A model generated the notes under the pieces. The model saw nothing but the letters and a program-made list of their open reading frames with translations, was not told the origin of the DNA and made no database searches. The translations under genes were made by a program, and so were the position numbers. This document shows, in pieces, positions 7,101 to 25,087 of a DNA stretch of 25,791 nt (the first letter of the stretch is position 1; the number at the start of each line of letters is the position of its first letter). The DNA is from Atribacterota bacterium (lineage in GTDB: Bacteria; Atribacterota; Phoenicimicrobiia; Phoenicimicrobiales; Phoenicimicrobiaceae), in NCBI GenBank assembly GCA_038203565.1, contig JBBRDV010000016.1, forward strand, positions 1-25,791, in the 5' to 3' direction.

Positions 7101-7727
7101 GGAATCGCGCGCCGGGGACTTGTTTTCAAGTTAATGACCTCTCTAAAACAGATCTGCAACCACCCGGTTCAGTATACCAAAAAAGGAACTGTCATTAAAG
7201 AGCACTCGGGCAAAGCAGAGATGACTATTTCTCTACTAAAAAAGATTGTTTCTACCGGAGAAAAAGTTCTCTTGTTCACCCAATACAAAGAGATGGGGAA
7301 TCTACTGGTACAACTAATCCAGACAGAACTTCGAATAGTGCCTCTCTTTTTTCACGGCAGCCTCACCAGGAAAAAGCGGGAAATGATGATCGAGGATTTC
7401 CAGAATGGCAATACCTCCCCAATTATGATCATCTCACTGAAAGCAGGAGGTACAGGCCTTAACCTGACCGCCGCAACCAACGTCATCCACTATGACCTCT
7501 GGTGGAACCCTGCCGTAGAAGCACAAGCAACTGACCGAACTTACCGTATCGGCCAAAGCAGGAATGTATTTGTACACCGACTTATTACCATCGGTACATT
7601 CGAAGAAAAAATTGATGAAATAATCAGCGCCAAAAAAGAGTTGGTTAATTTAACTGTTTCTGCCGGTGAAAAATGGCTCAGTGAACTCTCCAACCAGGAA
7701 CTAAAAGAAATATTTAAGCTAAGCTAA
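4122..7727 (+). CDS. SWIM zinc finger + SNF2-family helicase
   Basis: N-terminal NRLPRGRSYA and CSCPDWANPCKHLAA (SWIM). C-terminal LRPYQ, LADDMGLGKT, DEAQNIKN, LSGTPVENRL, SLKAGGTGLNLT, WWNPAVEAQATDRTYRIGQ. Confidence 0.95.
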   Translation: MVTRNKFGRTWWGNAWLEAMARIDYDTNRLPRGRSYADGGRVQEIQICKGIVKAKVKGRQPKPYQVTIYLQKFSPEQFAKIQSCIAEDPSLASELALGKLPEEMLDRLAQENIFLLPTTWQELNANCSCPDWANPCKHLAAVYYLIANEVDKNPFILFHLRGVKTNTLMQAAGFAEPAAAAENKETFIPYTQIKVPIKDNKVEPEFSSILSSLSQEKDSSAVFALLEESPLFYPEGNFTQLLFKAYRNIANHIKQLQLLEESPSWLKSNICLLDPGIKVRQPLSETSFFIFLPKKIPEGLEVPSKMISVPETVDEKLVLKRKKGRLLPAAILIDYFIRLPLRLSSEENSPEVRLISIATTIALALARASAFVPQIKNDQKGNFFVRYMPLYQAKVTEKALDFLANLIPATFFYRKKEKSIFMGRDAAKSLLSLILTHIVHRFAGIKESNKLCNTFFNGDYYPVQDFTEKQTANVIKNWLSILNLSGNDISPAIRIEILPGKKTYFQLQVEVENKKDPLSPLLPLADVFTTKKTIFSRPIEMVRFTVAHQISAASTYFPPLKTVLSSKGKKSPLIDPLEMAKFIQNGQHIFNMLGIRVIVPKELKILSSPQLSLGAKLKASEKQNISYFNLEEMLTFSWEVALGDLKLTRKEFLQLVKSAVGVVKFKEHYLLLQPEEVARIVKKLNQPLPKLSSAEIMQASLTGQTASIFFHSDNELRKMIDGLTKFKLIKIPKTLKTVLRPYQKRGFQWLYSNADKGLGSCLADDMGLGKTIQAIALILKLKEEKKLEHPALVICPTTLVGNWLKECNKFAPSLRALTYHGPERRLITAHADLVITTYGLMRQEVEKFAKRKWNLIIIDEAQNIKNADSKQTKAVKTLKAIGSIALSGTPVENRLSELWSIFDYLNPGYLGTRQNFEQRFAMPIEKYRDQKKIALLQKSTAPFIMRRMKTDRSIIQDLPDKIVKNEYCYLSKEQTAIYQRVVDANIQEISESEGIARRGLVFKLMTSLKQICNHPVQYTKKGTVIKEHSGKAEMTISLLKKIVSTGEKVLLFTQYKEMGNLLVQLIQTELRIVPLFFHGSLTRKKREMMIEDFQNGNTSPIMIISLKAGGTGLNLTAATNVIHYDLWWNPAVEAQATDRTYRIGQSRNVFVHRLITIGTFEEKIDEIISAKKELVNLTVSAGEKWLSELSNQELKEIFKLS

Positions 7728-7963: not shown

Positions 7964-8509
7964 TAATGATTGTAAACAAAAAGTCATAATTTGCTATAAA
8001 ATTACCTGCAGTGTACTATATACATAACCTTCCTTCTTATACTACAACAAAAGGCTTATAAAACCCTTCTTTTTCAAGAAAAAAACTGGATTCCCGCACT
8101 TTCTTCGAAATTTCGTAATGACAGAGAGAGTAAAACTAACAATATTTACTTACAAATGGGGAAAATGTGTAAAACCTGTGGGGAAATACCTTCTTGAAAG
8201 CCTTATTTTACAAGGCTTTCAAGAGAATAACGCCAGAACTGCTTGTACGAGTATATTTTGCCTTAACTTATACTTTACCCCTCAAAAATGGCACTTTTTT
8301 GACTAAAATTCCATCATCTAAAAATCTGAAAGTGGCTTTTTATAAGGGTTTCCTAATTTTAGGGAGGTAAAAATAGGCTAAAAATGGGGGTCGTAATTGC
8401 CGTTTTTTTGAAAATTGAGGTGCGTTTAAAGGCACTCTACGTGCGTTAAAAGGGCATTCCTGAAGGGGGTATGAAAGCCTTGTAAATAAAGGCTTTATGG
8501 GGGGTAATT
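7964..8509 (+). repeat. Long dispersed non-coding repeat, copy 1 (core 8117-~8509; 5' extension 7964-8116 shared with copy 2)
   Basis: Aligns by eye to 17562-18141 and 21309-21726; 27-bp palindromic sites at 8195, 8327 and 8472. Confidence 0.93.
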
Positions 8510-8526
8510 AAAAATATATGTTGCTT

Positions 8527-8968
8527 CTATTTCAAACTCATTGTGGTTAGGATAAGCTCCTTAATTTCTGATGGTAATTGTTCAGTTTGCCATTTTCTTT
8601 CTACATCTACTGATTTACCAGCAATTTTTACGGCCTTCAAAGCATACAAGGCTGCTCCCAATGAATGGTCAGCCATACCAATTCCTCTCAGCAACCTTTT
8701 TCCCCGCAACAGTGAATAAATTTTCCCAGTATCTTTTCCTGGTTCCTGAGCGGCAATATCTGCACACGCTTTCCCCACTTCTTCGATGGGCACACTAAAA
8801 GCTTCCAATGCATAAGGTAAATTCTTTAAATCTTTATTTAACTTGGGGCTTGTCTTGATATCATGATAAAAATCGGTTTCGACCATGCCGGGGATTAGCA
8901 TATGAATGGAAATAGGATGTCCTTTATATTCTTCGGCTAAATTCCTGAACTTTGTCTTTCAGTTTCAT
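8527..8968 (-). pseudogene. Deleted/chimeric gene: SDR start + SDR C-terminal part + Imm5-like C-terminal fragment
   Basis: GGAG RBS + MKLKDKV (8968) jumps out of frame to LAEEYKGHPISIHMLIPGMVETDF (SDR C-terminus; TGxxxGxG and YxxxK are missing). At ~8676 it switches to MADHSLGAALYALKAVK...ERKWQ, which resembles Imm5-like proteins. Confidence 0.65.
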
Positions 8969-8995
8969 AGTTATTCTCCATTCGTATGAATCCAT

Positions 8996-9020
8996 GTGTC
9001 AAATCTCAACATTTGGCATA
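8996..9020 (+). repeat. Degenerate half-copy of palindromic element A
   Basis: GTGTCAAATCTCAACATTTGGCATA matches GGGTCAGGTCTCAACATTTGACATA at 21/25 positions. Confidence 0.65.
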
Positions 9021-9072
9021 CACTACTATTAAGAAATTGAAAATGAGATGTAAATGGGGTTAGATATACTCG

Positions 9073-9501
9073 CTATTTACCACCAAAATGTATCATCTTA
9101 ATCTTAATAATCATTTTGTCTTCATTAACTTGCATTTTTAATTTTTTGTATGGCCCAGGAATTCCTTTTTTGAAATAATTCGTTAACCCTATTGGCTCTT
9201 TAGGTATGTTGAAAATGTAAGTATCAAGTTTCCCATTTCCATTTTTATCCTGAAACATAGATATAACATATTCTCCATTTGGTAGTACTTCATCTATCAA
9301 TAGAGTAGCGGAAGTAGAATCAATCGTTAGTGCTTTGTAAGGAATATTATTTTTATATCCATCTTTGGAATTAAAAATTGCCATAATTATTTTACCTTGA
9401 TTGGGTAATACTTCACTAATCTCGATAGTCACGTTTAATGGTTCAGCAAAAATACTAGTAGAATATAGCAAAAAGATGATTAGAAATAGTATTTTTTTCA
9501 T
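9073..9501 (-). CDS. DUF2141-family exported protein
   Basis: Signal peptide; GEYVISMFQDKNGNGKLD...PKEPIGLTN motif. Confidence 0.85.
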   Translation of the reverse strand: MKKILFLIIFLLYSTSIFAEPLNVTIEISEVLPNQGKIIMAIFNSKDGYKNNIPYKALTIDSTSATLLIDEVLPNGEYVISMFQDKNGNGKLDTYIFNIPKEPIGLTNYFKKGIPGPYKKLKMQVNEDKMIIKIKMIHFGGK

Positions 9502-9627
9502 GAAGTTACTCCTTTCTATCTTAGATAATTATCTTCTTTTTTCCAGAATCTCACATCATAAGCGCACTATTTCATTTACACTAGCAAACTAATCTATCAA
9601 CATATGCTTAATGTTTTTTCTCATTTA

Positions 9628-9996
9628 TTAATTGTATTTTTGTAGGCAATAACACAGATTGCCTATATAAAATAAGAGAATATGAGCTTGGCAAATATAT
9701 AATTTATAAAGAACATAGGGTAGCAAGGCAATAAATCCCAAAAGAACTCTAAAGGCATCTTCTTCAACTGTTCTATCTTTTGGTTTTAAAAGGGTAAAGA
9801 TCGTGAAAGTAATCCCAAGAATGGTCGGCGCTTCCCATTTTGTTAATACGGTCCATGCGCCAAAAGTAGTGGCAACTGCTTTTCCACCATTGAACCTTAA
9901 CATTGGAGAAAAGGCGTGTCCTAAAATGCCAAAACTGAACCAGATAGAAACTGTAAAAAAATTGCCAGAGAGTATATACCACCAAACCATAAACAT
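9628..9996 (-). pseudogene. PlsY-like acyltransferase, N-terminally deleted fragment
   Basis: GHAFSP..FNGGKAVATTFG is PlsY motif 2; motif 1 (GSGNxGxTN) is absent. Overlaps the truncated end of the GT2 gene. Confidence 0.7.
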
Positions 9997-10817
9997 AATA
10001 TTAAAAAATTTATCATACCAATTTGAATTGCACCGAAAGCCATATTTTTACTAAGACCCTCAAAAAGCTGTTTTAGCCCTTTTGGATACATACGAAACTT
10101 TATTATTTCGCCGCCCAATATATTGGTAACACCTATCCCCTTTTTTAAGAAAATCTTCCCAATTTTTAAATCCTCAACAACCTGGTCCTTTACTGCAAGA
10201 TGCCCGCCAGTTTTCTCATAGCCGCTCCTTGAAGTCAAAATCACGGGTCCAAAAACCCCAAGGGGATTAGATTTTTGAAAAAGAGAAAAAGAATTTATCG
10301 AAGAGATGGCGATTAAATTAAAAGGCATAATAAGATGTTCGTAGAATTTTTTAAATCTCTGATATGGCCAAACAGAGATCAATCCACCATGTTTTATATA
10401 TTCTGTGACCAGACTCTCTAAAGCCTCTCCAGAAAGTTCAACATCTGCATCCAGAAAGAGTAATAAATCACCTGTAGATTTAAGATATCCATTCCAGCAC
10501 GACCAGGGTTTTCCAATCCAGCCTTTTGGTGGTTCTTTTTTTAAAGATATAATATCAATGTCTACATAAGAAGATGCTACAGATTCAGTTTTGTCTGTAG
10601 AATGGTCATTGACTACAATTATTTCGTAGGGTTTATAATTTTGAGTTTTTAAAGTATTTAATATTTTACCTATATTGTGTTCCTCATTCATTGCTGGTAT
10701 GATCACCGAAATGCGAATACTTTTATTTTGAAGACTTTTTGCCTCTAAAAATCTTGTCCTTCTTAATAACAGTATCCATCCAATAATCCAGGAAAGAATT
10801 AGTATAAAATGTTTCAT
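9921..10817 (-). CDS. Glycosyltransferase family 2 (CrtQ/CruC-like), probably C-terminally truncated
   Basis: SVIIPAMNEE, VVNDHSTD, PPKGWIGKPWSC, FLDADV, VEDL, FRMYP motifs. Confidence 0.85.
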   Translation of the reverse strand: MKHFILILSWIIGWILLLRRTRFLEAKSLQNKSIRISVIIPAMNEEHNIGKILNTLKTQNYKPYEIIVVNDHSTDKTESVASSYVDIDIISLKKEPPKGWIGKPWSCWNGYLKSTGDLLLFLDADVELSGEALESLVTEYIKHGGLISVWPYQRFKKFYEHLIMPFNLIAISSINSFSLFQKSNPLGVFGPVILTSRSGYEKTGGHLAVKDQVVEDLKIGKIFLKKGIGVTNILGGEIIKFRMYPKGLKQLFEGLSKNMAFGAIQIGMINFLILCLWFGGIYSLAIFLQFLSGSVLAF

Positions 10818-10850
10818 ATGATAAAGCCCTTATAATTATTTTTTTTAACT

Positions 10851-12470
10851 TTATTTTCTCTTTTTTAATTGTGAAATAACCCGGTCTGCAGCCAATTTTC
10901 CTGTTAATATGGCAATTGGCAGACCTGAAGGACTATAGGTCCACTGTCCTGCCTGGAAAATATCGCTCATTGGTGTTAACACTGATTTCGAAACATTTTG
11001 CATTTTATTTACTGCTGGCATGCCCTTATTTGTAAAAGCCCATCCGGTAATAGCACCTTCAGAACTTCCAGTTTTTTTTGCAATTGATAATGGTGAGTAC
11101 GAAAAGCGATCCATAATGGCTGAACGGATTGGGGGATAGATTGAATTTGAAAGAGTGTCAATCATGCAGTTTTCGATATATATTTTAATTTCATTGTACA
11201 ATCCCTGTTCATCAAGTATTTTACACAAATTATAATCAAATAAAACACTTAATATCAAACCGGTTTTTCCTGCAGGTGCAAGGTTTTTATCTTTAAGCAC
11301 CGGAATGGATATTTCAAGTGTTGTATAACTGATGTATTTTGAAATCCAAAATTTTATCTCTTCCAGGTTTTTTTCAGTGGGGGTCTTGGACTGTATGGAA
11401 AGGAGCTGGTTAAGATCTGAATATATTTTTTCGCCCAATCCCGTTTTCAGGGGTGAATAAAAAAAATGTCCATTTGATATTTTCGAGAAATATGACGGAG
11501 CTAAGTCAACAGAAAGATAAAGCGTAAAAACACTGTCGCCTCCAATTTTTTCTTCTATTTCGTTCTTCCTTGCAATGGTCTTTTGTTTTGTCTTTCGGTC
11601 TAAAATTTTATTAGTGTCTATGCACTGATACAGGTATTTTTGGTCAGATGCCCAAATTAACTTTTTATAAAAGTACGCTTTCCCCTGTTCATCTGTAATC
11701 GAGTGATTATCGGGATCAAGGGCTACAATTTTGGTGTTCTTCGCTATTTCTGCTTTTCTATTGACGCAAAATTCTTCCATTCTGCGGGGAATCATCCCCG
11801 TGCCTCCAAGGGGATAATTATAATCCAGATAGAGACTGAAATAACTCATGGCAAAAAAAGCGGGGGTTTTTTTAAAAAAATGCTGGCTGATGATATCCAT
11901 AAGTGATTGGTTTCCGGTAAACATTTGCAAATGTTTTTCCACTGGCATATTCATGTGATTGATCTTGCCAATGGTAAAGAAAAATTTTCCTATCCAGGGC
12001 AGGAGTACCTTAAACAGATAATTCCGGTCATGTTTCAAATCCTTAAAGATGGGATTCTCTATACCATATAAGACTTTCATATATTTCATAACTGTTTTGA
12101 TATTATTGATTATTCTTTTTATATCATCGCTGTTTTCAGGGTAAAAACTGATTAGAAGCTCAAAATAATTCTTAAGGTTTTCTTCTGAAATTATGTCTAT
12201 TACCTTGTCTTCAATTCCCACAGAAACCCGGCTCTCCACAAATTCAATTTCGATGCCCAGACTCGAAAGCATGGGAAATACAATGCCTGAATTCTCTATG
12301 GCCCGAATTCCGCTGTCAAAAGTAAAACCCTTCTTATCGAAAGAATTAATCAAACCCCCGAGTTGGTTTTCCTTTTCGCAGATTAGAACAGAATATCCGG
12401 CATCTGCCGCAAATGCACCAGCAGTAAGTCCTGCCATTCCCCCTCCTACGATAATTACATCATATTTCAA
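10851..12470 (-). CDS. Phytoene dehydrogenase-like FAD-dependent oxidoreductase
   Basis: GGGMAGL Rossmann motif, GFTFDSG, YPLGG, LAPAGK, AGQW...GLP. Confidence 0.88.
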   Translation of the reverse strand: MKYDVIIVGGGMAGLTAGAFAADAGYSVLICEKENQLGGLINSFDKKGFTFDSGIRAIENSGIVFPMLSSLGIEIEFVESRVSVGIEDKVIDIISEENLKNYFELLISFYPENSDDIKRIINNIKTVMKYMKVLYGIENPIFKDLKHDRNYLFKVLLPWIGKFFFTIGKINHMNMPVEKHLQMFTGNQSLMDIISQHFFKKTPAFFAMSYFSLYLDYNYPLGGTGMIPRRMEEFCVNRKAEIAKNTKIVALDPDNHSITDEQGKAYFYKKLIWASDQKYLYQCIDTNKILDRKTKQKTIARKNEIEEKIGGDSVFTLYLSVDLAPSYFSKISNGHFFYSPLKTGLGEKIYSDLNQLLSIQSKTPTEKNLEEIKFWISKYISYTTLEISIPVLKDKNLAPAGKTGLILSVLFDYNLCKILDEQGLYNEIKIYIENCMIDTLSNSIYPPIRSAIMDRFSYSPLSIAKKTGSSEGAITGWAFTNKGMPAVNKMQNVSKSVLTPMSDIFQAGQWTYSPSGLPIAILTGKLAADRVISQLKKRK

Positions 12471-12550
12471 TTGATTCTCTCCTTAAAATTGTTATACAAA
12501 AAAATTTGCTGATTAATCTTTAAATATCAGTCCTTTTGAAAAATCCTGAT

Positions 12551-13483
12551 TTACAATAAGCCTGTCATCTTTTTACTAATCGCCCATATTTCTTTACCTA
12601 TTTCCCGATCCAAGGCATGTGGCGAAGATTTTTCAACAAGTGTCAGATTGAAATACTGCCCGGTGACATCGGACAATTCCGGTGCTGCCGCAAGATAGTG
12701 AAGGGCTTGCCCTGAAATAGAAGGATCCGCTAAAAATTTCGTTATGAAATTGTGTTTGTACCATCGATACAGAGGGCCGTTGTTCTCTCCAATACCGCTC
12801 TTTACCGATCCGGGATGCATGGCATTAATTGTGACTCCCGAGCCTTTCAGTAAATCGGCAAATTCCCAGACTGTTAGCAGTTGTGCAGTTTTGGAAGCCC
12901 CATAACCACGTAATCCGGTGTAATATCTTTTCTCCCAATTTAGGTCATTTATATTCAAGCCATTAAAGCGGTGTCCCTGGGAATTGACCTGAATGATTCG
13001 TGCTGAAGCATTTTTTTTAAGCTTTTCCATCAGCTTGTAGGTTAGTATAAAAGACGCAAGGTGGTTAACACAAAATACTGTTTCTAAATTGTCTTTGGTA
13101 TATGTTTTCCTGGTGCAATACATGCCGGCATTATTAATGAGAATATCTATCCGCCGGTCTAAATTGTTCAAATAATCCGCTGCCTGATGCACTTCTTCTA
13201 AATTTGCAAAATCAGCGATAAGATAATCGCATTCGACATGGTAAGTAGAGCGAATGTTCTCACAAGCTTTTTCTGATTTTTCCTGATTACGGTTAATCAT
13301 TACAATAGAGGCTTCATGAGCAGCCAATGCTTTCGCGGCTTCCCAGCCTACCCCGGAAGTAGCACCGCTTAAAACACACCATTTTCCTTTCAAGTTTACA
13401 TCACTATAATGCTGATCAGCACGGTTATTGGCTATCATCTGTTTCATGTCGGCCCATTTATACTGTTTTAAATATTTAAACAA
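12551..13483 (-). CDS. SDR oxidoreductase (retinol dehydrogenase-like)
   Basis: SGATSGVG, LINNAG, VNHL, YGASK, MHPG. Confidence 0.92.
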   Translation of the reverse strand: MFKYLKQYKWADMKQMIANNRADQHYSDVNLKGKWCVLSGATSGVGWEAAKALAAHEASIVMINRNQEKSEKACENIRSTYHVECDYLIADFANLEEVHQAADYLNNLDRRIDILINNAGMYCTRKTYTKDNLETVFCVNHLASFILTYKLMEKLKKNASARIIQVNSQGHRFNGLNINDLNWEKRYYTGLRGYGASKTAQLLTVWEFADLLKGSGVTINAMHPGSVKSGIGENNGPLYRWYKHNFITKFLADPSISGQALHYLAAAPELSDVTGQYFNLTLVEKSSPHALDREIGKEIWAISKKMTGLL

Positions 13484-13495
13484 GATAAAACCTCC

Positions 13496-13948
13496 CTAAC
13501 CGAATTTCTTTTTCATAAATTTTCTATATGGTTTTGCAAACCAGGGAATATTATCGAATATATCTCCCCATAAATCAAAATAATCCCTTTGCTCAATGAT
13601 TCTTCCGTCTTGATGAAGGGTAAGTTTCGTAGATCCGTAAATTGTAGAACTGGGAAATTTTTTGAAAATCATAGTCATTTCCCATTCCATAAAAATAATG
13701 TTATTTTCCTTTACAATTGAAGAGATATTCATCTTGAGCTGTTGACATCTGGATGTTAGTCTGTCACAAAGATTTTTGAATTCCTCAATCCCCACTATTT
13801 TTTGAATCGAATCCTTGAATACTATTTCTTCGTGGTAATAAGGAAATATATGAGACCAATCTGGCTTACCATCCCTGTTATAAGTCTTGGACCACAATTC
13901 TTTTATCTGAATTGTGCTTAAACTGGATAAGTTAAAGTGATTATTCAT
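13496..13948 (-). CDS. NTF2/SnoaL-like protein
   Basis: YHEEIVFKD...GRIIEQRDYFD; GGAG RBS. Confidence 0.85.
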   Translation of the reverse strand: MNNHFNLSSLSTIQIKELWSKTYNRDGKPDWSHIFPYYHEEIVFKDSIQKIVGIEEFKNLCDRLTSRCQQLKMNISSIVKENNIIFMEWEMTMIFKKFPSSTIYGSTKLTLHQDGRIIEQRDYFDLWGDIFDNIPWFAKPYRKFMKKKFG

Positions 13949-13987
13949 AGCTCCCTTTTATTGACTTTTTTAAAAAATCCATTGAGT

Positions 13988-14019
13988 TATCATCATCAAT
14001 CCGATGATCAATGATGATA
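13988..14019. promoter_or_regulatory. Candidate repressor operator upstream of the SnoaL-SDR-desaturase operon
   Basis: TATCATCAT-N14-ATGATGATA inverted repeat with an internal CATC/GATG, overlapping a possible minus-strand -10 TATCAT. Confidence 0.5.
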
Positions 14020-14178
14020 TTCTTACTACTTTTATTGTCTGATATCTCCTTAAAGAAAGAATGAAAGAGTGGAGGTCATCCTGCACAAATTCATAGATCA
14101 TAGGCTTCATAGAAGTGATATCAAAATAAATAGATGTCTGTCTCAATTTTATCTATACGACTTCTATATGACTTCCCG

Positions 14179-14508
14179 TCAATCATCATATTTGAATGCA
14201 ATGTACTCAATAATAATACCGTATACGACACCTGCCAGGAAACTTACAACATCAGTAAAGCCTGTAGAGCTATAAAAAGCAAAAGAAACGACTAACCCAA
14301 AAAGTGCACCTCGGACAATTATTTTCGGCCATCCCAGGTTTCCACCAGCCAATCCAATCACCAAACCCATAATCAATCGATTGTACCATAAAGCAAACAA
14401 CAAGTAAGCATCACTCTGAAAACCTGACCTTACCCAGGCTCCAACAATACACATCACCCCCAAAACAGCTCCTGAAGCAATACATATTTTCATTCTTTTT
14501 GTCAACAT
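14179..14508 (-). CDS. Small hypothetical membrane protein (about 4 TM)
   Basis: Hydrophobic 109-aa ORF; strong RBS GGAGGTG. Confidence 0.8.
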   Translation of the reverse strand: MLTKRMKICIASGAVLGVMCIVGAWVRSGFQSDAYLLFALWYNRLIMGLVIGLAGGNLGWPKIIVRGALFGLVVSFAFYSSTGFTDVVSFLAGVVYGIIIEYIAFKYDD

Positions 14509-14526
14509 ACTTATTCACCTCCTCAT

Positions 14527-14676
14527 CTAATATTTATGAATCCAATCTAAAAACTTCGTTGAATAACCCAGTGTTTCTGTAGGACAGCTATCTACACAAT
14601 GACCACAACCAACGCAACGCAAGTCGGTGACTATGTTGCCAATTTGAGCCATACTCTTAATATCAATTGACATAGG
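14527..14676 (-). pseudogene. C-terminal remnant of a 4Fe-4S binding protein
   Basis: Hand translation PMSIDIKSMAQIGNIVTDLRCVGCGHCVDSCPTETLGYSTKFLDWIHKY*, containing CxxCxxCxxxCP. The first cluster motif is cut just before PM. Confidence 0.7.
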
Positions 14677-14700
14677 ATTATTCCATTATTTGATATTTAC

Positions 14701-14723
14701 TGAATTATTCAAATCTGACACCT
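14701..14723 (-). repeat. Degenerate half-copy of the GGGTCAGGTCTTG element
   Basis: Minus strand AGGTGTCAGATTTGAATAAT versus AGGGTCAGGTCTTGAAATAT. Confidence 0.45.
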
Positions 14724-14861
14724 TAATAATAATAGGAACAGACACCTATTTATCAATTTTCTTCTTAGATCTTTTTTTATAGATGTTCCTCTAAAGATTG
14801 CCGAATTATTGGGCTTATACAACCCCCGTCCCTGTCACAAATTTGAATTGGTCTGTGGTAT

Positions 14862-15320
14862 CTACTCCTCATCCCAGCGGTACTTTTTATTCTGGCGCAG
14901 CTTATCGAGATCGCAATTCAAGCACAGTCCGTTATGACAGCAAATCACTTCCCCACATTCAGGGCAGCGCCACTTTGCCTCTTCCTTTTCTAGGAACCTC
15001 TCGATGCCATGCTCTTTGATGAATTCGAGGTTTTCTATCATGCTCATATGGTACTTGGTGCGGTATCGCATATCGAGGACTTTCAGCCGACTACAGGGAA
15101 AATTTTCGCACTCATAGCAAAACCGAACAAGTCCTTTCCCGAGCAGATCGCACTGACTTTTCATGAAGGTACAGTTCTTACCGCGTGGCAGGCAGCCGCT
15201 GCAGTATTTCTTTCTAAGTCCCTCCTTCTTAAGGTCATATTTCATCGCCAGATCACTAACACAGAGTCCGCAGTTCATGCCACAGGGAGCGATAAGTGAA
15301 ATTTTATTTAAGGATTCCAT
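14862..15320 (-). CDS. DUF3795-family Cys-rich protein
   Basis: IAPCGMNCGLC, CSGC, FCYECENFPC, CPECG...C. Confidence 0.85.
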   Translation of the reverse strand: MESLNKISLIAPCGMNCGLCVSDLAMKYDLKKEGLRKKYCSGCLPRGKNCTFMKSQCDLLGKGLVRFCYECENFPCSRLKVLDMRYRTKYHMSMIENLEFIKEHGIERFLEKEEAKWRCPECGEVICCHNGLCLNCDLDKLRQNKKYRWDEE

Positions 15321-15448
15321 AACTTCTTCCTACTTTTTATTTGCTAAAGATGCTCCAACCATAATACTCATTACAGACATTATAAGATATCTTAATCCTA
15401 TCTGCCTAAACAATATCTGACGTCCCACTGTCTTTCCTCTTATTTTTA

Positions 15449-15763
15449 CTACCAATCTATGTCGGCTGGAAAGAGACTGTAATGCTTTACGCCCTGACGG
15501 GGTTGAGCCATCCAATCTGCTACAGTCTCTTTCCATTTCAGATAATGTTCAGTTTTTTGGTGGTTCTGAAATCCTTCTGGAGACTTATAAACCTCATATA
15601 AGAAGAATTGCGAAGGATCATTTTCCGCCTGCAAGACATTGAAGTGGATATTGTCCGGTTCTTTGCGAGTGTTCCGAGCATTTTCAAAGGTTTCTTCTTT
15701 AAAGTCCTTAATTTTTTCTGGTTTAATAAAGACAGTTACACATACAACATACATATTTTTCAC
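15449..15763 (-). CDS. Antibiotic biosynthesis monooxygenase (LsrG-like)
   Basis: FFLYEVY...HQKTEHYLKWKETVADWMAQPR; RBS AGGAGGTG. Confidence 0.88.
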   Translation of the reverse strand: MKNMYVVCVTVFIKPEKIKDFKEETFENARNTRKEPDNIHFNVLQAENDPSQFFLYEVYKSPEGFQNHQKTEHYLKWKETVADWMAQPRQGVKHYSLFPADIDW

Positions 15764-15861
15764 CTCCTTATTAGCTAACTCTACAAAGCGATCGGCGCTT
15801 TGCTTTTTAGATTCATTTTAAAAATTTTTTGCGTAGTTCCCCTTCCTGTTCCTGGTGTTCA

Positions 15862-15940
15862 TGGGGTCAGGCTTTACAACTTCACATTTCCTTCTTCTGT
15901 TCTCGCTTTACATTTTGTGAAGTTGTGAAGCCTGACCCCA
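15862..15940. repeat. Palindromic REP/MITE-like element B (25-bp arms, 1 mismatch)
   Basis: TGGGGTCAGGCTTTACAACTTCACA (15862-15886) / TGTGAAGTTGTGAAGCCTGACCCCA (15916-15940). Confidence 0.9.
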
Positions 15941-16250
15941 GTTTATCCCTAAACACTATTGACCTTGCACATCTTAACATTGCTAAATATACATAATTAT
16001 AAGTAACTTCTTCATCAATTTCTAACTTTGCTTATGATTGATTTAAATAATAATAAACCAGATTCCCTTTATTCTCAATAAGAAAAAGCCCTGTATTTTT
16101 TAATTTAATCAACTCACGGCGAATATTTCCTACTGAAAAATTAAGTATCCTCTCTAACTCTCTTAAATAGTATTTTTTATTTGGATTGGTAAAATAGAGC
16201 GCTAAAAGTTCTTCTCTTAATTTAGATTTGGTAATACGAAACATATCCAT
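15941..16250 (-). pseudogene. Collapsed wHTH-nucleotidyltransferase / HEPN toxin-antitoxin remnant
   Basis: wHTH (SKLREELLALYFTNPNKKYYLRELER...RREL..L...GL) stops at 16032. The same frame continues AKLEIDEEVTYNYVYLAMLRCARSIVFRDK (HEPN-like helix) and ends at element B. Confidence 0.6.
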
Positions 16251-16251
16251 A

Positions 16252-16297
16252 ATTGTAGTCCTTTCTGAATACAATTGTAGTATTTATTGACTACAAT
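16252..16297. promoter_or_regulatory. Tandem palindromic operators (ATTGTAGT-N8-A(A/C)TACAAT x2)
   Basis: 16252-16275 and 16274-16297, 22-bp period, directly upstream of the wHTH ATG at 16250. Confidence 0.7.
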
Positions 16298-16298
16298 A

Positions 16299-16628
16299 TC
16301 AAGGTGTATCTGTACCGTATAAATCGGCGGTATGAAATAACATCGTTCCAAAGTGAACGATGTGTTTCTTTTCTTGTAATTCCTTTACTAATTCCCGGGG
16401 GAAGGGATTCCCTCCATCCTTCTTAAAGCCAAACTGCCAGGGAATGACCACTAAATTAATACCCTTCCCCTCAACCGCATCCGAGAATGATTTGGCAGTA
16501 AGCCCTTCGGTTGATGCCAGAACAATCCTGTTGATATTTCTTGATTTTGCCCTTTCTAGAATTAATTTGATCGCCTCTGTAGTATTTTTCTTGCCTGGTC
16601 TTTCGAAATAAACAATTTTTTCTTCCAT
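16299..16628 (-). pseudogene. Pyruvate-kinase alpha/beta (MTH1675-like) protein, C-terminally truncated
   Basis: MEEKIVYFERPGKKNT...IVLASTEGLTA; ends abruptly at YGTDTP* exactly at the tandem operator. Confidence 0.65.
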
Positions 16629-16790
16629 TTTTTTCCCTTTCACATTATTGATATAAAACATTATAATTTTACCATAAGGGGGCTTCTAATAAAAAGCTAA
16701 TTGCAGTAATTTTCATTCCTTGGCTGGCTTAAGTAGAAAAAATATTTTAAAAAAAATTGAAAGTTATTCACTAAATGTTTTTGCCATTCT

Positions 16791-17348
16791 TCAAGTTAAG
16801 TGATCAATTAATATTCTTATTCCGATACCGATTAAAATTAGACCGCCAACTATTTCAATTTTCCTTTCAAAATAATGCCCAAATCGATTACCAAAATAAA
16901 CCCCAAAAATTGATAGTAAAAATGTTATAATTCCAATTATTACTGCCGGTAGCATGATAGAAAGGTTTAAGAATGACAGGCTTAGACCAATGGCCAAAGC
17001 ATCTATGCTTGTGGCAATGGACAACATCAGTAAAACATAAACATTCAGTGGATCTATTTTCTTGTTGTTTGCTCTCATTTTAGATGATTCATAAATCATT
17101 TTACAGCCTACTATACTTAGAAGTCCAAAAGCGATCCAATGATCAATACCAGAAATATAATTTCGAAAACCCAGCCCTGCTGACCATCCGATTAATGGCA
17201 TAATAGCCTGAAATGATCCGAAAAATATTGCGATCTTTAAGGCATGATTAATTCTTAGGTGTTTTATGGTTAATCCGCTGGTGATAGATACAGCAAAAGC
17301 ATCCATTGCTAATCCAAATGCTATAAATATAATTGAAATAATATCCAT
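16791..17348 (-). CDS. mntP: Manganese efflux pump MntP family
   Basis: LAMDAFAVS, FQAIMP, IDHWIAF, ATSIDALAIG. Confidence 0.93.
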   Translation of the reverse strand: MDIISIIFIAFGLAMDAFAVSITSGLTIKHLRINHALKIAIFFGSFQAIMPLIGWSAGLGFRNYISGIDHWIAFGLLSIVGCKMIYESSKMRANNKKIDPLNVYVLLMLSIATSIDALAIGLSLSFLNLSIMLPAVIIGIITFLLSIFGVYFGNRFGHYFERKIEIVGGLILIGIGIRILIDHLT

Positions 17349-17407
17349 TTAACCCTCTTTTATCCGGCTTCTAAAATCCAAGTCAATTCCTTCTTCATCA
17401 ACAGTAA

Positions 17408-17535
17408 AGGGTTCAGGTCTTGAAATATCTCTTTTTTTCTTCTCGCTTAAATTTTTTAAATCTTCCTGCTCCCTGTACTATATTCATGCCCATATATTCT
17501 GCTATCTATTTTGTTATATTGCAAAACCTGACCTT
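17408..17535. repeat. MITE-like palindromic element C (diverged copy of D)
   Basis: AGGGTTCAGGTCTTGAAATAT...ATATTGCAAAACCTGACCTT; the internal ~87 bp is nearly identical to 24901-25027. Confidence 0.88.
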
Positions 17536-17561
17536 ATATGATTTTTCTTAGGTCGCTAAAA

Positions 17562-18141
17562 TAATGACTATAACCAAAAAATCATAACTTGCTATAAAAT
17601 ATCTGCAACTACTATATAACATAATCTTCCTTTTTATACTACAACAAGAGCCTTATAAAATCCTTCTTTTTCAAGGGAAAAGTTATTAGTCACTCAATGG
17701 AAGGGAAAAGACTGGATTCCCGTAATGACAAAGAGATTATAACTAACAATATTTAGTTATAAATGGGGAAAATGTGTAAAATCTGTGGGAAAATAACTTC
17801 TTGAAAGCCTTTTATAATAATGGTTTCAAGAGAATAATGCGAGAATTGCTTATACGATCAAATTTTGCCTTAACTGATACTTTATCCCTCAAAAATGGCA
17901 CTTTTTTAACTAAAATTCCATCATCTCAAAATCTGAAAGTGGCTATTCATAAGGGTTTCGTAATTTGAGGGAGGTAAAAATAGGCTAAAAATAGGGGTCG
18001 TAATTGTTGATTTTTCGAAAATTGGAATGCGCTTAAAGGCACTCTCCGTGCGTTTTTAGGGCATTCCTGAAGGGGGCCTGAAATCCCTGTAAATAAAGGG
18101 TTTTTAAGGAAATAAATGGGAACGAAAAACCGTCTCCTGTT
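17562..18141 (+). repeat. Long dispersed non-coding repeat, copy 2 (core from 17724)
   Basis: 27-bp sites at 17802, 17934 and 18079; shares the 5' extension with copy 1 and the 3' GGGAACG..AACCGTC.CCTGTT tail with copy 3. Confidence 0.93.
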
Positions 18142-18283
18142 ATATCCCCTGCTCTACAAACTCATCGATTCCCATGATAGATTGATTAAACGCAAGTATA
18201 TTATTTATTTTCATTAATACCGATTATAATTTATAATAAATAAATAAAACCTGGGATTTGATTCTATTCTATTTATTTGATAG

Positions 18284-18970
18284 GTGATTAAAAATATGTT
18301 TGATATCAAAAGCGCCTTAAGCAAGAATAAATTATTCATTCATTTTAATGATAAGGAAATCACAGATTTTATTATATCCTCTCACTATAAAATCCATGAT
18401 TATCAATCCGGCCAAGTCATCGCTATTAAAGGCGAATTATTAACACAAATTGGCCTGATATTAAGTGGGGAAGTGGAAATTCAAAAAACCTATCCTGCAG
18501 GGAAGATGATTGTAATTAACCAAATCTCCGTTGGCGGTGTTTTTGGTGAAGTTGCCATATTTTCTTCTAAAAAAACTTTCCCCTCTACTGTAGTAGCTTC
18601 TCTTGACTCAAAAGTTATGTTTCTTAATAAAATTAATATTTTGCAGATATGTTTTCAAAACAAAAAATTTCTCACTAACTTACTCCACCTGTTATCGGAA
18701 AAAATATTAATTCTTGATCACAAATTACACTTTTTATCTGGTGAAACCATCCGCCAAAAATTATGCCTGTACCTTATTGAATGCTATCAAACTCAAAATA
18801 AGCTAACCATTCAACTGGATATTTCCAAACGAAAAATGGCTGAACAATTTGGCGTTACCCGACCTTCACTATCACGGGAATTGATTCAGATGAAAAAAGA
18901 GGGTTTAATTGACTATGTCAGCAATCAAATTATCATTAAAAACCTACAAGCATTAGAAGGTTATTTGTAA
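18284..18970 (+). CDS. Crp/Fnr-family regulator (HcpR-like)
   Basis: cNMP-binding fold (GGVFGEVAIFS) and HTH GVTRPSLSREL; adjacent to hcp. Confidence 0.9.
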   Translation: MIKNMFDIKSALSKNKLFIHFNDKEITDFIISSHYKIHDYQSGQVIAIKGELLTQIGLILSGEVEIQKTYPAGKMIVINQISVGGVFGEVAIFSSKKTFPSTVVASLDSKVMFLNKINILQICFQNKKFLTNLLHLLSEKILILDHKLHFLSGETIRQKLCLYLIECYQTQNKLTIQLDISKRKMAEQFGVTRPSLSRELIQMKKEGLIDYVSNQIIIKNLQALEGYL

Positions 18971-18995
18971 AAAAAGTTTATCCGTTCCCAGACAT

Positions 18996-19289
18996 TTAAC
19001 TTTTTCTATTCTTGATGATCTTTATATAATAAGGATAAAAAAACATATATACACCGGTAAAAGCAAGTGCCAGCATGAAAATACGTTGCAGCCGAAAAAA
19101 TAGACCATTAATAAGCATATCCTTAGTAAAAACCATTACCAAGAGAGTTAGAATCACAAAAGGAATAGTTAAATAGCGGTGTATCTTTCTGAATAATATA
19201 GCCATTTTTTTTATAATTTTTTCCTCCACTTTTTTATTTAAGGTTTTTTCCGACAACTTATGCATAAATTGTCGGAAAATTTTAGTCAT
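18996..19289 (-). CDS. Small hypothetical membrane protein (true start possibly 19205)
   Basis: Two hydrophobic segments after RKIHRYL; the ORF's 5' part overlaps a 34-bp palindrome. Confidence 0.55.
   Translation of the reverse strand: MTKIFRQFMHKLSEKTLNKKVEEKIIKKMAILFRKIHRYLTIPFVILTLLVMVFTKDMLINGLFFRLQRIFMLALAFTGVYMFFYPYYIKIIKNRKS
19246..19279. other. Near-perfect 34-bp palindrome just downstream of hcp (terminator, stabilising hairpin or operator)
   Basis: TTTTCCGACAACTTATG|CATAAATTGTCGGAAAA, 1 mismatch. Confidence 0.7.
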
Positions 19290-19297
19290 TAAGCATT

Positions 19298-20950
19298 TTA
19301 ACTAAAAAACATTTTTATATCATCATCAACCTTGCCAATTCCGGCGATATTAAATTTTTCCACTAAAACATTGGCAACATTAGGAGATAAAAAAGCAGGT
19401 AATGTTGGTCCTAAATGAATATTCTTAACGCCAAGATAGAGTAAAGCCAATAAAACAATCACCGCTTTTTGCTCATACCAGGCAATATTGTAAGAAATGG
19501 GAAGTTGATTGATATCATCCAGGCCAAATACTTCTTTTAATTTTAAAGCGATTACCGCCAGGGAATAAGAGTCGTTACATTGTCCGGCATCAAGCACCCT
19601 GGGAATACCGCCTATATCGCCCAAATTAAGTTTATTATAACGGTACTTAGCACAACCTGCTGTTAAAATAACCGTGTCCTTGGGTAATTTTTGGGCAAAT
19701 TCAGTGTAATAATCCCGGCTCTTCATCCTGCCGTCACAACCAGCCATCACAAAAAATCTTTTAATAGCTCCACTTTTGACTGCCTCTACCACCTTGTCGG
19801 CTAACGCAATCACTTGATGATGAGCAAATCCGCCTACAATTTTTCCTTTTTCAATTTCTTCGGGAGGAGAACATTTTTTTGCTAACTCAATGATCTCAAC
19901 AAAATCTTTTGCTTTTCCATTTTCTCTGTCCGGTACATGCCGCATACCTGGATATCCTGCTGACCCAGTTGTAAACACTTTATCTTTGTAGCTGTCCCGG
20001 GGAGGAATGATGCAGTTGGTGGTCATTAGTACGGGACCATTAAATTTTTCAAACTCTTCATTCTGTTTCCACCAGGAATTTCCATAATTTCCCACAAAAT
20101 GTTCGTACTTCTTAAAGGCGGGATAATAATTTGCCGGTAACATTTCTCCATGAGTATAAACATCAATCCCGGTCCCTTTGGTCTGTTCTAACAATTCTTC
20201 CATATCTTTCATGTCATGACCGCTGATTAATATTCCGGGATTATTCCTGGTCCCTATATTCACTTCAGTCACCTCAGGATTTCCATAAGTTTCAGTATTT
20301 GCTTTATCCAACAAAGCCATGGCATCCACGCCATACTTACCGCATTCCAATACCAGGGCAACTAAATCATCAACCGTTAAGCTATCATCGGTTGTCGCGG
20401 CTAAGCCCTTTTGAATAAAGGCGTCCAGGGATTCAGTCTCGTAACCTAAATTAAACGAATGTTCCGTGTAAGCTGCAATCCCCTTGATACCATAGATCAA
20501 CAGTTCCCTTAGTGAACGCAAATCCTCATTTTCAGTAGCAAGCACTGTAACTTCAGGTGAATTCACTTTCATTTCAAAATCTTCTTCTTTTTCTGCTTTC
20601 CAGGTAGCACATCCAGGTAAATTTTCGGGTATTATCCCTCCTGCATCTAGAAATTGTTTTTTAATTTCTTCTCTTAGTTTTAAACCTTCTTTTATCTTTT
20701 CCATAAAAACAGGATAATTAAAATTAACATTGGTAATAGTCATAAACATTGAATTAACAATAAATTGATTGACTTTTTTATTTTCTACTCCTAATTTTCG
20801 TGCTCCGGTACTATATACTGAAATGCCTTTAGCTAAATAAACCAGCAAATCCTGTACATTAGCGAGATTTGCACTTTTACCACAAACACCCCTGATGGTG
20901 CAGCCACTTCCTTTAGATGTCTCCTGACATTGATAACAAAACATATTCAT
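19298..20950 (-). CDS. hcp: Hydroxylamine reductase (hybrid cluster protein); start corrected to 20950
   Basis: MFCYQCQE...[57 protein letters not shown] precedes ATG 20950. Confidence 0.97.
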
Positions 20951-20997
20951 CTTGATATTCCTCCTAAATTTATTAGTTATAAACGATTCTAAAAGCA

Positions 20998-21039
20998 ATA
21001 TTATCATAAGCATATGGTTTAATCCGTACCAAATGGTAC
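20998..21039 (-). promoter_or_regulatory. hcp promoter: extended -10 plus candidate HcpR box
   Basis: Minus strand TGaTAATAT (-10 at 21003-20998); palindrome GTACC-N4-GGTAC (21026-21039) centred at about -41.5. Confidence 0.6.
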
Positions 21040-21308
21040 CATTCATTCATTTTTTATGGAATATTTTTAGAATAGAGAACAAATCTTAATAATCAAAACA
21101 AACAGTTTAATTAAATTTTGGATGATTGATCATTAGTTTACCTTTTTGGAGCTTTCTCGGTGTATCCTTTTACAATATAGAAGACCAGGGGACGTCAGGC
21201 TTTTTACTAGAAAGAGAATTCCTTCCAAAAATTAAAACAATTTTAGTTATTTTTATTACCACCTTGCAACCTCAAGGAGTGTTATAAAGAACCCCCTGTC
21301 ACATTTAC

Positions 21309-21726
21309 AATGGAAGAGAGATTAAAATTAACCATATTGACTTAAAAATAGGGAAAATGTGGAAAACTTGTGGGAAAATACCTTCTTGAAAGCCTTATAT
21401 GATAAGGGTTTCAAGAGAATATTGCGAGGATTGCTTCTACGAGCAAATTTTGCCTTAACCTGTACTTTATCCCTCAAAAATGGCACTTTTTTTGCTAAAA
21501 TTCCATCATCACAAAATCTGAAAGTGGCAATTTATAAGGGTTTCGTAATTTGAGGGAGGTAAAAATAGGCTAAAAATAGGGGTCGTAATTGTTGATTTTT
21601 CGAAAATTGAAGTGCGTTTAAAGGCACTCTCCGTGCGTTTTTAGGGTATTCCTGAAGGGGGCCTGAAAGCCCTGTAAATAAAGGGTTTCAAAGGAGGTAA
21701 ATGGGAACGGAGAACCGTCCCCTGTT
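21309..21726 (+). repeat. Long dispersed non-coding repeat, copy 3
   Basis: 27-bp sites at 21387, 21519 and 21664; collinear with copies 1 and 2. Confidence 0.93.
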
Positions 21727-21812
21727 CTATTATTTAATTTGATTTTTGAAAGTTTTTCTTTTTTTTAGGAAAAAATCTTAAAAATGATATATTTTATATG
21801 AATATATATTTC

Positions 21813-23165
21813 TTATCCCATCATACCTCCACCACCCTTATCACGATAAGCGTAAGAATTTGTCCAGCTTGTTTGCCCTTTTATAGAAATAGATTTAGGT
21901 GGATTTAAAGCGATAAATATTTCTGCTTTTGACTGACAAACATCTTCAAATATACAAATTCCATTAAAAGTTTTTAATAGATTATCACCTCTTAAAAAAA
22001 TCTCTCCGTTATGACGTGGTAATTGTGATGAATTTAATTGACAAGGTAGCAATTTATACTTAGGTATTGCTTGTTTATTTATTCCTTTCTCGCCACATTC
22101 AGGACATTTTTTTAATCTTGCACCAAAATGGTAGAAGGTATGACCGTTTTCACATTCATACATTACTACATTTGGTTTACAATATTCTCTGCCAATCCGA
22201 TAAATTGAATAATCCATCTGGCAAGGAGATAAAGGAGCAGTAGTACTATCTAATTTTGTCCATTTTTCCCAAACTACTCTCCATGCTTTAGAACTCATTT
22301 CATCAATATAGCTATATTGATAACAAAATATATCTAAAAAACTAGAAAGCAATTGCATGTCGGTTTTCAAAATTCCGGTTCTTAAAGCTAATTTTATAGT
22401 ATTGATATCACTTGCAACATCGATTTTATCTAAATTATTCAACCCAGGCCAAATATTCCATTCGTACATATCTCTTAAATACATATTTGCTTTTTTAAAT
22501 CCATAACCGATATTAGAAGCATTTACTAATCCTTCCCTTACCCGTACAGCATCATTATTATAATATCGTGCTATTTCAAATGCCGTAATATTATTGTCTA
22601 ATAAAAATTTTGCAGCATTTTTAGCAAAATCAATACGTTTATCAGTTTGAGACAAACGAGTCATTCCTAAAAACTTTAAAAAACTCTCTGGGTCCTCTGC
22701 AATCTCTTGAGCTTTAAATCTATTAGGATCATCAAAATATTTGTCAAATTGATTTTCTGGTGGTTCTCGAAAATCCTGATTAGCTGTAAAAAATCTAACC
22801 TGCGCAACAGCTTCAGGTGATAAACCTTGAGGTTGATTTACTACTCCGAGTATATTATTGCCATACTGTTTTATTGCCTTTGATAAAGCCTCTGCAGCTA
22901 ATTGTGCTTTTTCACTATCAATTTTTACATTTAATATTTCCTTATGATTAGCTTCCCAAAATTTATGAAACTTAGAAAAGTATTGAATTTCTTGCCCATT
23001 AAAAGTAGTAGTTCCAATTTTTTCATACGTTTGGAAAAAATACTCATTTAATTTTTCTAAAAAACGTTGAGCAAGACAAACTTCAGACAAACTAGTCCAA
23101 GAAGCGGGTAATGATATGCCTATTTTTTGATTTATTTCCTTAATAAATTCTACAAAATTACCTAT
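21813..23165 (-). CDS. HhH-GPD/endonuclease III-superfamily glycosylase-like protein with Zn ribbon
   Basis: NIGYGFKKANMYLRDM (HhH-like), DVASDINTIKLALRTG (catalytic Asp region), MDYSIYRIGREYC, CENGH...CPEC, CIFEDVC. The frame is open upstream of the track start (23090) to an ATA at 23165 preceded by GAGAGG. Confidence 0.6.
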   Translation of the reverse strand: MGNFVEFIKEINQKIGISLPASWTSLSEVCLAQRFLEKLNEYFFQTYEKIGTTTFNGQEIQYFSKFHKFWEANHKEILNVKIDSEKAQLAAEALSKAIKQYGNNILGVVNQPQGLSPEAVAQVRFFTANQDFREPPENQFDKYFDDPNRFKAQEIAEDPESFLKFLGMTRLSQTDKRIDFAKNAAKFLLDNNITAFEIARYYNNDAVRVREGLVNASNIGYGFKKANMYLRDMYEWNIWPGLNNLDKIDVASDINTIKLALRTGILKTDMQLLSSFLDIFCYQYSYIDEMSSKAWRVVWEKWTKLDSTTAPLSPCQMDYSIYRIGREYCKPNVVMYECENGHTFYHFGARLKKCPECGEKGINKQAIPKYKLLPCQLNSSQLPRHNGEIFLRGDNLLKTFNGICIFEDVCQSKAEIFIALNPPKSISIKGQTSWTNSYAYRDKGGGGMMG

Positions 23166-23242
23166 CTTATTTACCTCTCTTCATTAACTTAAATATCAAG
23201 AATAAAGACCCCATTTTTTCCCTTTATGATAGTTAATTAGAG

Positions 23243-23850: not shown

Positions 23851-23868
23851 TATTAAATTCCTTATAGA

Positions 23869-24729: not shown

Positions 24730-24900
24730 TTTATGGCATCTCCAAATTGTTTATTTTATAATTTTAGTTCAATAAGTTCATCTGTGCGAATTACATCATA
24801 ATCATATCTTTTTTCAACTATACAACTTTCATTCTTTTATTAATCTTTATCAATTATACAAGTACCTGCTAAGCTAAGTAATTCAATAAAGAACAATAAA

Positions 24901-25027
24901 AGGGTCAGGTCTTGAAATATCACTTTTTTTCTTCTCGCTTAAATTTTTTAAATCTTCCTGTTCGCTGTACTATATTCATGCCAATATATTCTGCTATCTA
25001 TTTTGTTATATTGCAAGACCTGACCCT
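24901..25027. repeat. MITE-like palindromic element D (20-bp terminal IR, 1 mismatch)
   Basis: AGGGTCAGGTCTTGAAATAT (24901-24920) / ATATTGCAAGACCTGACCCT (25008-25027). Confidence 0.9.
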
Positions 25028-25060
25028 ATATGCCTCCGCTAAGATCATTTTATTCGAAAT

Positions 25061-25087
25061 TGCCTGCCCTCCTTTGGAGGGGAGGCA
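25061..25087. terminator. GC-rich hairpin downstream of the type III Res-like gene
   Basis: TGCCT-G-CCCTCC-TTT-GGAGGG-G-AGGCA; poor U-tract, so it may instead be a REP-like hairpin. Confidence 0.4.

Follow-up and report, generated by a model that had tools for sequence, protein, structure and literature searches.

The closest described relative of the element reported here is BIME-1/RIB (RIP) of Escherichia coli, whose plan is a pair of inverted repetitive extragenic palindromes (REPs) around a short, conserved linker with one IHF site (PMC3333891). We analysed a 25,791-bp stretch of DNA from an Atribacterota bacterium (contig JBBRDV010000016.1, assembly GCA_038203565.1), called the window, which holds three copies of a multicopy intergenic repeat of related build. 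Like BIME-1/RIB, this repeat is an intergenic mosaic with a conserved linker and bending-type sites, it lies after gene 3' ends, it has tandem and chimeric forms, and part of its copies carry, at one or both ends, REP hairpins of the type associated with a REP-associated Y1 transposase (RAYT) (PMC3333891). In contrast to BIME-1/RIB, it reaches ~750 bp and holds six dyads spaced 115-250 bp apart, its symmetric site is off the IHF consensus in a host with no IHF pair, it is strongly polar, it carries a DnaA-box-like pair, and the plan of inverted REPs around a linker is seen only in part of the copies. A REP family with its cognate RAYT (a REPtron), another mark of BIME-1/RIB, is present in two relatives (L375 and L354), with a RAYT score below the NCBIfam cut-off. 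We did not file the repeat as BIME-1/RIB because it lacks a consensus IHF site and its REP ends are inconstant; the best reading is an undescribed, enlarged, polar BIME-1/RIB-like architectural repeat.

IHF-folded scaffolds, namely the lambda attachment arms, type I-F CRISPR leaders and the left end of a CRISPR-associated transposon (CAST), likewise have several bending-type sites at held distances (10.1101/2023.05.26.542337, PMC10201428), and the dyad of our element is also found at tRNA and tmRNA ends. In contrast to these scaffolds, the element has no linked integrase, Cas1 or transposase and no fixed crossover. The E. coli datA/DARS loci resemble it in having co-oriented DnaA-box-like 9-mers by a bending-type site, but the element is multicopy and variable, its boxes are one-sided and they are missing from many copies (PMC5742627). 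The multicopy elements of Geobacter metallireducens, putative IHF/HU sites, are also lineage-specific, intergenic and proposed to serve nucleoid proteins, but they consist of paired short tandem 5-8-mers at variable distance and not of a long phased dyad array (PMC2700814). Literature searches, with subscription journals outside their coverage, found no account of our element. The view in the original prediction, made from the window's letters alone, that no described family fits therefore held in the searches made, but the kind is already known, as a REP-bounded intergenic mosaic repeat with bending-protein sites.

We consider, with a probability of about 0.5, that the repeat is a lineage-restricted, strand-polarised, mosaic intergenic DNA element with dyads bent by a symmetric protein, for which HU is a candidate, and with copies spread by RAYT and reshuffled by homology. 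A symmetric DNA-bending protein, the best candidate being a single HU-family homodimer, would bind and sharply bend the spaced palindromes, and the bent array would fold like an enlarged BIME-1/RIB element. Copies would be spread by the REP-associated Y1 transposase and reshuffled by homology-driven recombination. Genes bracketed by copies may be exchanged as well, and the cell may benefit.

All three window copies lie on the plus strand with starts at 8117, 17724 and 21309, where the original prediction had placed them. As it had noted, they differ by many substitutions (ungapped identity of 87.6, 87.1 and 91.1% over 380 bp), and the BLAST alignments of the pairs involving copy 3 have 0 gaps over 380-422 bp. 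The predicted landmark spacing of 78, 132 and 145 bp, from the start to site 1, site 1 to site 2 and site 2 to site 3, is the same in all of them. The features are as follows.

8037..8084, minus strand: promoter-like motif pointing away from copy 1, also found at copy 2; the promoter role is putative
8087..8122, plus strand: short REP-like hairpin repeat adjoining copy 1, presumably a REP family; it also stands alone in the genome
8117..8496, plus strand: copy 1, left module and Y core (sites 1-2-3)
8166..8185, plus strand: tandem 9-mers of copy 1, 11-bp period, two mismatches to the relaxed consensus; DnaA-box-like or arm-type repeats
8195..8220, unstranded: copy 1 site 1, a dyad
8327..8352, unstranded: copy 1 site 2, left half degenerate
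8472..8496, unstranded: copy 1 site 3, a dyad
17634..17690, minus strand: promoter-like motif upstream of copy 2, toward mntP; a putative promoter
17724..18103, plus strand: copy 2, left module and Y core; sites start at 17802, 17934 and 18079; box pair at 17773-17792
18118..18141, unstranded: degenerate RAYT-type REP hairpin closing copy 2
18284..20950, unstranded: crp-like gene, small gene and hcp between copies 2 and 3
21309..21688, plus strand: copy 3, left module and Y core; sites start at 21387, 21519 and 21664; box pair at 21358-21377
21703..21727, unstranded: RAYT-type REP hairpin closing copy 3

The copies were rightly described as non-coding, as their longest stop-free frame is at most 70 codons. 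No conserved open reading frame (ORF) was seen, and decayed coding sequence was rejected as the origin of the element on that ground. No transposase, as had been claimed, and no recombinase was present among the 14 window proteins scanned against Pfam; the remaining ORFs were judged by eye only. Assembly collapse, which the prediction had listed as a possible refutation, is unlikely because the depth of run X1 is flat (12-23) and contigs of unique sequence extend into every copy from left and right, although this run may be the source of the window and hence not independent evidence.

The ~390-bp unit had been given the wrong boundaries. The window copies are the right half (Y) of a longer element, the master form of which is ~750 bp long with six sites. 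It opens with module X, made up of sites a-b-c and a tail; a linker follows, the last 78 bp of which are the left module, and then comes module Y with sites 1-2-3. The master spacings are ~135 or ~125 bp for a-b, ~117 for b-c, ~155-250 for c-1, ~132 for 1-2 and ~145 for 2-3, and on its left the element starts sharply, just a few bases beyond site a. Among 114 distinct elements, 61 have Y only, 35 have X only and 18 have both. X and Y, which have a spacer motif in common, look like old paralogues. The source genome (G000) contains two further near-full Y cores (on contigs C117 and C94), several fragments and one full X (C52).

The earlier description of the element as free of indels is true of the window copies but not of the family, since the exact 132/145 combination occurs in 20 of 60 copies. 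In these 60, the site 1-2 spacing is 132 (30 copies), 133 (19), 135 (6), 134 (3), 131 (1) or 136 (1), and the site 2-3 spacing is 145 (36), 144 (11), 146 (4), 143 (3), 134 (2) or, once each, 139, 140, 147 and 171. At least two sites were found in 50 of 53 metagenome X loci, with a first spacing of 133-136 in 45, of 124-126 in three, and of 276 and 286 in two X-to-Y hybrids; five more variants of 124-125 were seen in addition. Several of these length variants differ by about one helical turn (10-11 bp): a-b at 124-126 versus 133-136, 2-3 at 134 versus 145, and the a-3 hybrids at 276 versus 286. Slippage in a 10-bp repeat could also explain such one-turn variants.

The AA/TT/AT power spectrum peaks at 10.5-11 bp, and the median for Y exceeds 99.5%, and that for X 98.3%, of 1000 composition-matched genome windows. 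Rfam gave 0 matches at the gathering score, and the four found by E-value are at chance level, far below that score. No RNA data set was listed as containing the element, which is neutral as to its expression. The consensus fold of 50 copies has an energy of -8.75 kcal/mol, a covariation term of -0.33 and 18 pairs, of which one shows a double change, and that of the minus strand is weaker (-5.25). One position of the site 1 hairpin is unpaired in 47 of the 50 copies, and the named dyad hairpins keep their mismatches. Together, the phasing and the near-absence of a consensus RNA structure point to an element that acts as DNA shape and not as RNA. The original prediction had proposed selection on geometry, and the tight spacing, the variants of about one helical turn and the ~10.5-bp A/T phasing support a constraint on DNA geometry; of the examples it had offered, the large structured RNA is not supported.

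The site has the form of a 9-7-9 dyad, in which a TT and an AA step, separated by 9 bp, hardly vary. For site 1, TT occupies positions 9-10 in 59 and 60 of 60 copies, and AA occupies 18-19 in 60 of 60. IHF introduces its two kinks at AA steps that are separated by 9 bp (PMC1874591, 10.1101/382655), and since the TT-N7-AA spacing has the geometry of these kink steps, we propose a bending protein as the binder. The source genome has one HU-like gene and no alpha/beta IHF pair, and an HU/IHF-family gene was found in 76 of 86 genomes of the phylum, most of which have a single one. A single HU-family homodimer would explain the symmetry of the dyad, which makes it a candidate binder.

The element is strand-polarised. 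It runs counter to the gene at its site-3 end in 74 of 81 cases and to the one at its opposite end in 67 of 83 (from the 114 distinct elements), and between co-oriented genes the element opposes them 39 times and agrees with them three times. As controls, two REP families are unbiased and a third has a weaker bias. Genes of the source genome are themselves biased (519/619), and an element's orientation is predicted correctly from the majority strand of its region in 51 of 55 profile hits, compared with 40 of 46 for the nearest gene. On these fragmented genomes, none of which is a closed genome of the family, replication and transcription are inseparable as the source of the polarity.

Copies are also mosaic. 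In a PHI-like test of our own making, which could respond to uneven rates along the element as well, 0 of 1000 permutations reached the observed value, and contiguous thirds of the element correlate less (rho 0.25-0.32) than random thirds do (0.65). The loci include seven core-less alleles, an X joined to a fused 1/3 site, a tandem Y with one common site (L054) and fusions of the left module to X. X-to-Y hybrids, which were counted by manual reading of the loci, occur at the AKR and polX loci, and two of them cross inside the spacer motif. Sites 1 and 3 have unlike 7-bp centres, and a fused site may carry either of the two. At garK, a locus seen in several genera, the alleles are garK-XY, garK-X and garK-X-cargo-XY, and at glpK the order is X-ATPase-Y-glpK (L175), so that copies bracket genes. 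Because the junctions vary, homology is favoured over a fixed cut. Contig joints at 85% likeness from mixed metagenomes were left out of account.

Site 3 is followed by a RAYT-type REP in 25 of 66 cases (background 1.2%) and by another short hairpin repeat in nine of 66. Before site a, 43 contexts hold a REP (6), a degenerate REP (7) or a promoter-like motif (15). Window copies 2 and 3 have a right REP only. In the two relatives named above, an intact RAYT-like ORF of ~253 aa lies between two inverted copies of the same REP. A second REP family stands in inverted, REPIN-like pairs at 17400-17540 and 24892-25032 of the window, and also at 514-596 and 15862-15940; it also flanks RAYT genes on C131 and C11.

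The distribution is that of a lineage. The Y query matches 21 of 24 family genomes. The XY query matches 27 of 29 genomes of the host family, six of 22 of the sister family (two strongly) and one of 34 in the rest of the phylum (E 6e-4), and a profile search matches 24 of 29, four of 22 and one of 34; the genomes are fragmented, and a missing match is not proof of absence. Phage and plasmid collections gave no match, and pattern searches of IMG/VR returned 0, 3 and 0 loci, the three being without the element. A search of genome contigs for paired dyads gave 22 loci, of which 11 have the element (nine in Atribacterota) and 11 are unrelated. One element lies in a bin titled Aminicenantes (L180), with an upstream context as in Atribacterota copies; this contig is probably mis-binned.

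Among the 11 unrelated dyad loci, four flank tRNA 3' ends, one of them next to an integrase-like ORF, and a fifth has a tRNA-like fragment (by eye). The source genome has a dyad just after the tmRNA 3' end (C105:3880-3905), one of 41 tRNA/tmRNA genes. In an Epulonipiscioides locus (L190:2750-3480), tandem repeats of ~129 bp, each with one dyad and a DnaA-box-like 9-mer, adjoin a dnaN-like ORF (by eye), and in a Saccharibacteria locus (L188:1-500) dyads are spaced by arrays of 10-11-bp repeats.

Several observations weigh against an architectural repeat spread by RAYT and bent by HU. The dyad departs at 2-3 positions from the IHF consensus WATCARnnnnTTR, that of E. coli and not of the host, which has no IHF pair, and the 9-bp kink geometry is all they have in common. 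HU is described as a sequence-nonspecific binder (PMC5742627), so the predicted binder may be a protein other than HU. At four outside loci (L174, L179, L186, L191) the dyad resembles an ordinary terminator by eye. The A/T phasing is weak in single window copies (null fractions 0.02-0.07), and the copies are related, so the polarity counts are not independent events. The cognate RAYT is broken in the source genome, and the RAYT-like ORF of the relatives scores 71 bits, below the cut-off of 80. The right end lacks a REP in 41 of 66 cases and the left context in 30 of 43; as these REPs also occur alone, they may be secondary insertions. We found no base-precise filled/empty pair, clean pre-insertion site or target duplication. 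One genome (G024) carries the crp-hcp block without the element in the 9 kb fetched. L157 was considered as an empty site and rejected, since half a site is present there, broken up by a different element. Where contigs are joined through a long repeat, the joins may be assembly chimeras, notably in L265 versus L266. Lastly, at orthologous loci X identity is ~0.8-0.9 (the element mostly 0.79-0.90) and the fourfold-site identity of the neighbouring gene is 0.42-0.86, but the adjacent promoter DNA is as conserved as the element (0.76-0.98), which shows exchange or saturation and not extra selection on it.

In L004:1880-1900 and L157:10530-10610, one and the same foreign sequence interrupts the dyad at its midpoint, and we take the hairpin that follows this sequence in L157 to resemble an IS200/IS605 end.

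The collection comprises more than 100 natural variants of a DNA scaffold that is long, phased and multi-site, from a phylum whose members have one HU gene and lack an IHF pair. It makes testable which protein does IHF-type site-specific bending in such bacteria, where the same palindrome occurs at tRNA and tmRNA ends. The element also marks change points of gene content in an abundant uncultured subsurface lineage of sediment bacteria, often at assembly breaks. If it is only a selfish REP-borne repeat, it would be one more lineage-specific mosaic element, of unusual size.

Two readings that put recombination at the centre are possible but doubtful. In one, X and Y would be orphan attachment arms used in trans by XerC/D or by a lost integrase, and the loci would be cassette-exchange platforms for accessory genes. 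The same dyad at tRNA/tmRNA 3' ends, once beside an integrase-like ORF, would fit, as would direct copies that bracket small gene blocks (L175, L277, L167, L027, L059 and the window), fixed core genes (garK, glpK, nadE, polX, AKR, pilin) that bear the element while the neighbours beyond it differ, and the same cargo at different loci. Folded scaffolds with several IHF sites have been described for lambda and for CRISPR leaders (10.1101/2023.05.26.542337). Against this, the 135 flanking proteins (150 listed minus 15 near-duplicate flanks) include one DDE transposase and one reverse transcriptase but neither a tyrosine nor a serine recombinase, and none was seen by eye beside the 53 metagenome loci; the recombinases of the source genome are XerD, an XerC-like gene and a fragment only, and of the other tyrosine recombinases listed in relatives the flanks were examined in part. 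Attachment sites of tyrosine integrases have a fixed crossover in a 6-8-bp overlap. No such common overlap exists here: site 1 and site 3 are unlike at the centre, either version turns up in fused sites, and hybrids cross in the spacer, which fits homology better than fixed cuts. The suggestion in the original prediction of a site-specific recombination site gained no support, as no recombinase is linked and the junctions vary in position, some within spacers. Defence and toxin-antitoxin cargo, in classes of our own making, is not significantly enriched (22/135 flanks versus 6/65 control flanks from 20 source-genome contigs only, p=0.20), and the phage, plasmid and viral collections gave no match.

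The second of these readings, held with equal reserve, is a recombinase-free cassette platform, in which an HU homodimer with sequence specificity would fold each element, oriented by replichore, at up to six phased sites, and the folded scaffold would promote copy exchange, with accessory genes captured, stacked and swapped at a dozen fixed chromosomal hot spots. Were it true, this would be a system like an integron but lacking the integrase, and it would name the protein that reads a palindrome found repeatedly at attachment sites in bacteria that have no IHF. An integron proper was rejected, as the source genome has no integron integrase; by eye, the direction of an attC-like word in the element's left module is opposite to that of the genes. 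A CRISPR leader was also rejected: no array was seen beside the copies with flanks read, cas1 is present in two of 30 family genomes, and the one array seen has a leader without such a site. X lies upstream of variable type IV pilin-like genes at L249, L257, L261, L270, L286, L295 and L067, and at L010:813-2674 a Y copy ends a prophage-like lysis module with peptidase M15 and holin-like genes.

It is unlikely that the element is punctuation for transcription or supercoiling, with a hairpin and bent array downstream of one gene and a promoter upstream of the following one serving as terminator, topological insulator or gyrase site, and with selection fixing its orientation. The 3' end of a gene faces the site-3 end in 74 of 81 cases, a position judged by gene orientation and confounded with the strand bias. 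Convergent gaps outnumber divergent ones 12:3 for elements, versus 20:45 for long gaps in the source genome (p=0.0008; p~0.035 against 1:1), and a promoter-like motif adjoins site a in the 15 of 43 contexts given above. REPs and BIMEs have been described as terminators, insulators and gyrase sites (PMC3333891, PMC1475751). On the other side, a terminator scan around copy 2 returned 0 sites, the site 1 hairpin has its unpaired position in 47 of 50 copies, and the majority strand predicts orientation at least as well as the nearest gene. The upstream motif, as at 8037-8084 and 17634-17690, reads toward the neighbouring gene in 35 of 36 cases genome-wide and is likely the main promoter class of the lineage; we take it to be sigma-H-like.

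Somewhat less likely still is a replication-linked element, akin to datA/DARS or an origin, in which tandem DnaA boxes beside a bending site would titrate or regulate DnaA and the polarity would come from the replichore. The left-module 9-mers, which could equally be arm-type repeats, were scored against what we take to be the relaxed DnaA-box consensus. In 64 left modules, box 1 is exact in 43, and box 2 is exact in 21 and within one mismatch in 31 more. Tandem pairs with an 11-bp period and at most one mismatch are rare in the source genome, where the four found are those of window copies 2 and 3 and two after mnmE. There (C202:1476-1765), what we take to be a parS-like palindrome precedes the two pairs, and more boxes with trio-like repeats between dnaA and dnaN (C37) presumably mark the origin region. 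Orientation that tracks the majority strand also agrees with this reading. It is opposed by a strong box near dnaA that is not among the common left-module variants, by the 35 of 114 elements that are X-only, by genus-g4 copies without a left module and many others without a box pair, and by a very variable copy number. In addition, the boxes are co-oriented on one side of the site and do not flank it, whereas datA and oriC have the IHF site between boxes (PMC5742627).

A non-autonomous transposon (miniature inverted-repeat transposable element) or remnant of an insertion-sequence end is very unlikely, even with a sharp left boundary and many loci. The claim that terminal inverted repeats are absent was only partly right: being dyads, sites 1 and 3 also match one another as an imperfect inverted repeat (38 nt, 79%), as this reading would have it, and no target duplication was seen. 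No transposase was found by eye in or beside the 53 metagenome X loci, the one among the 135 scanned flanks was the DDE type, transposase loci of the source genome gave no match, and neither an empty target nor an autonomous partner was found; the strong polarity is left unexplained.

The large structured non-coding RNA proposed in the original prediction is barely credible, because single-sequence folds at z = -2.7 and -2.0, a consensus fold energy below column shuffles and named hairpins at 5-9 of 500 shuffles on some measures are set against a tiny consensus fold without covariation, shuffle counts within the tool's range for related unstructured sequences, dyads that pair by construction and frequent A/T swaps (522 of 2442 changes).

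Elsewhere in the window, an SNF2 helicase gene (4122-7727) is inserted opposite the his genes, and a variable hot spot lies on its 3' side in four other genomes (G002, G003, G004 and G075). A restriction-modification-like block follows copy 3 (21813-25779), with a 425-aa ORF of no assigned function, a MutH-like fragment and an N6/N4 methylase, possibly divided between overlapping ORFs.

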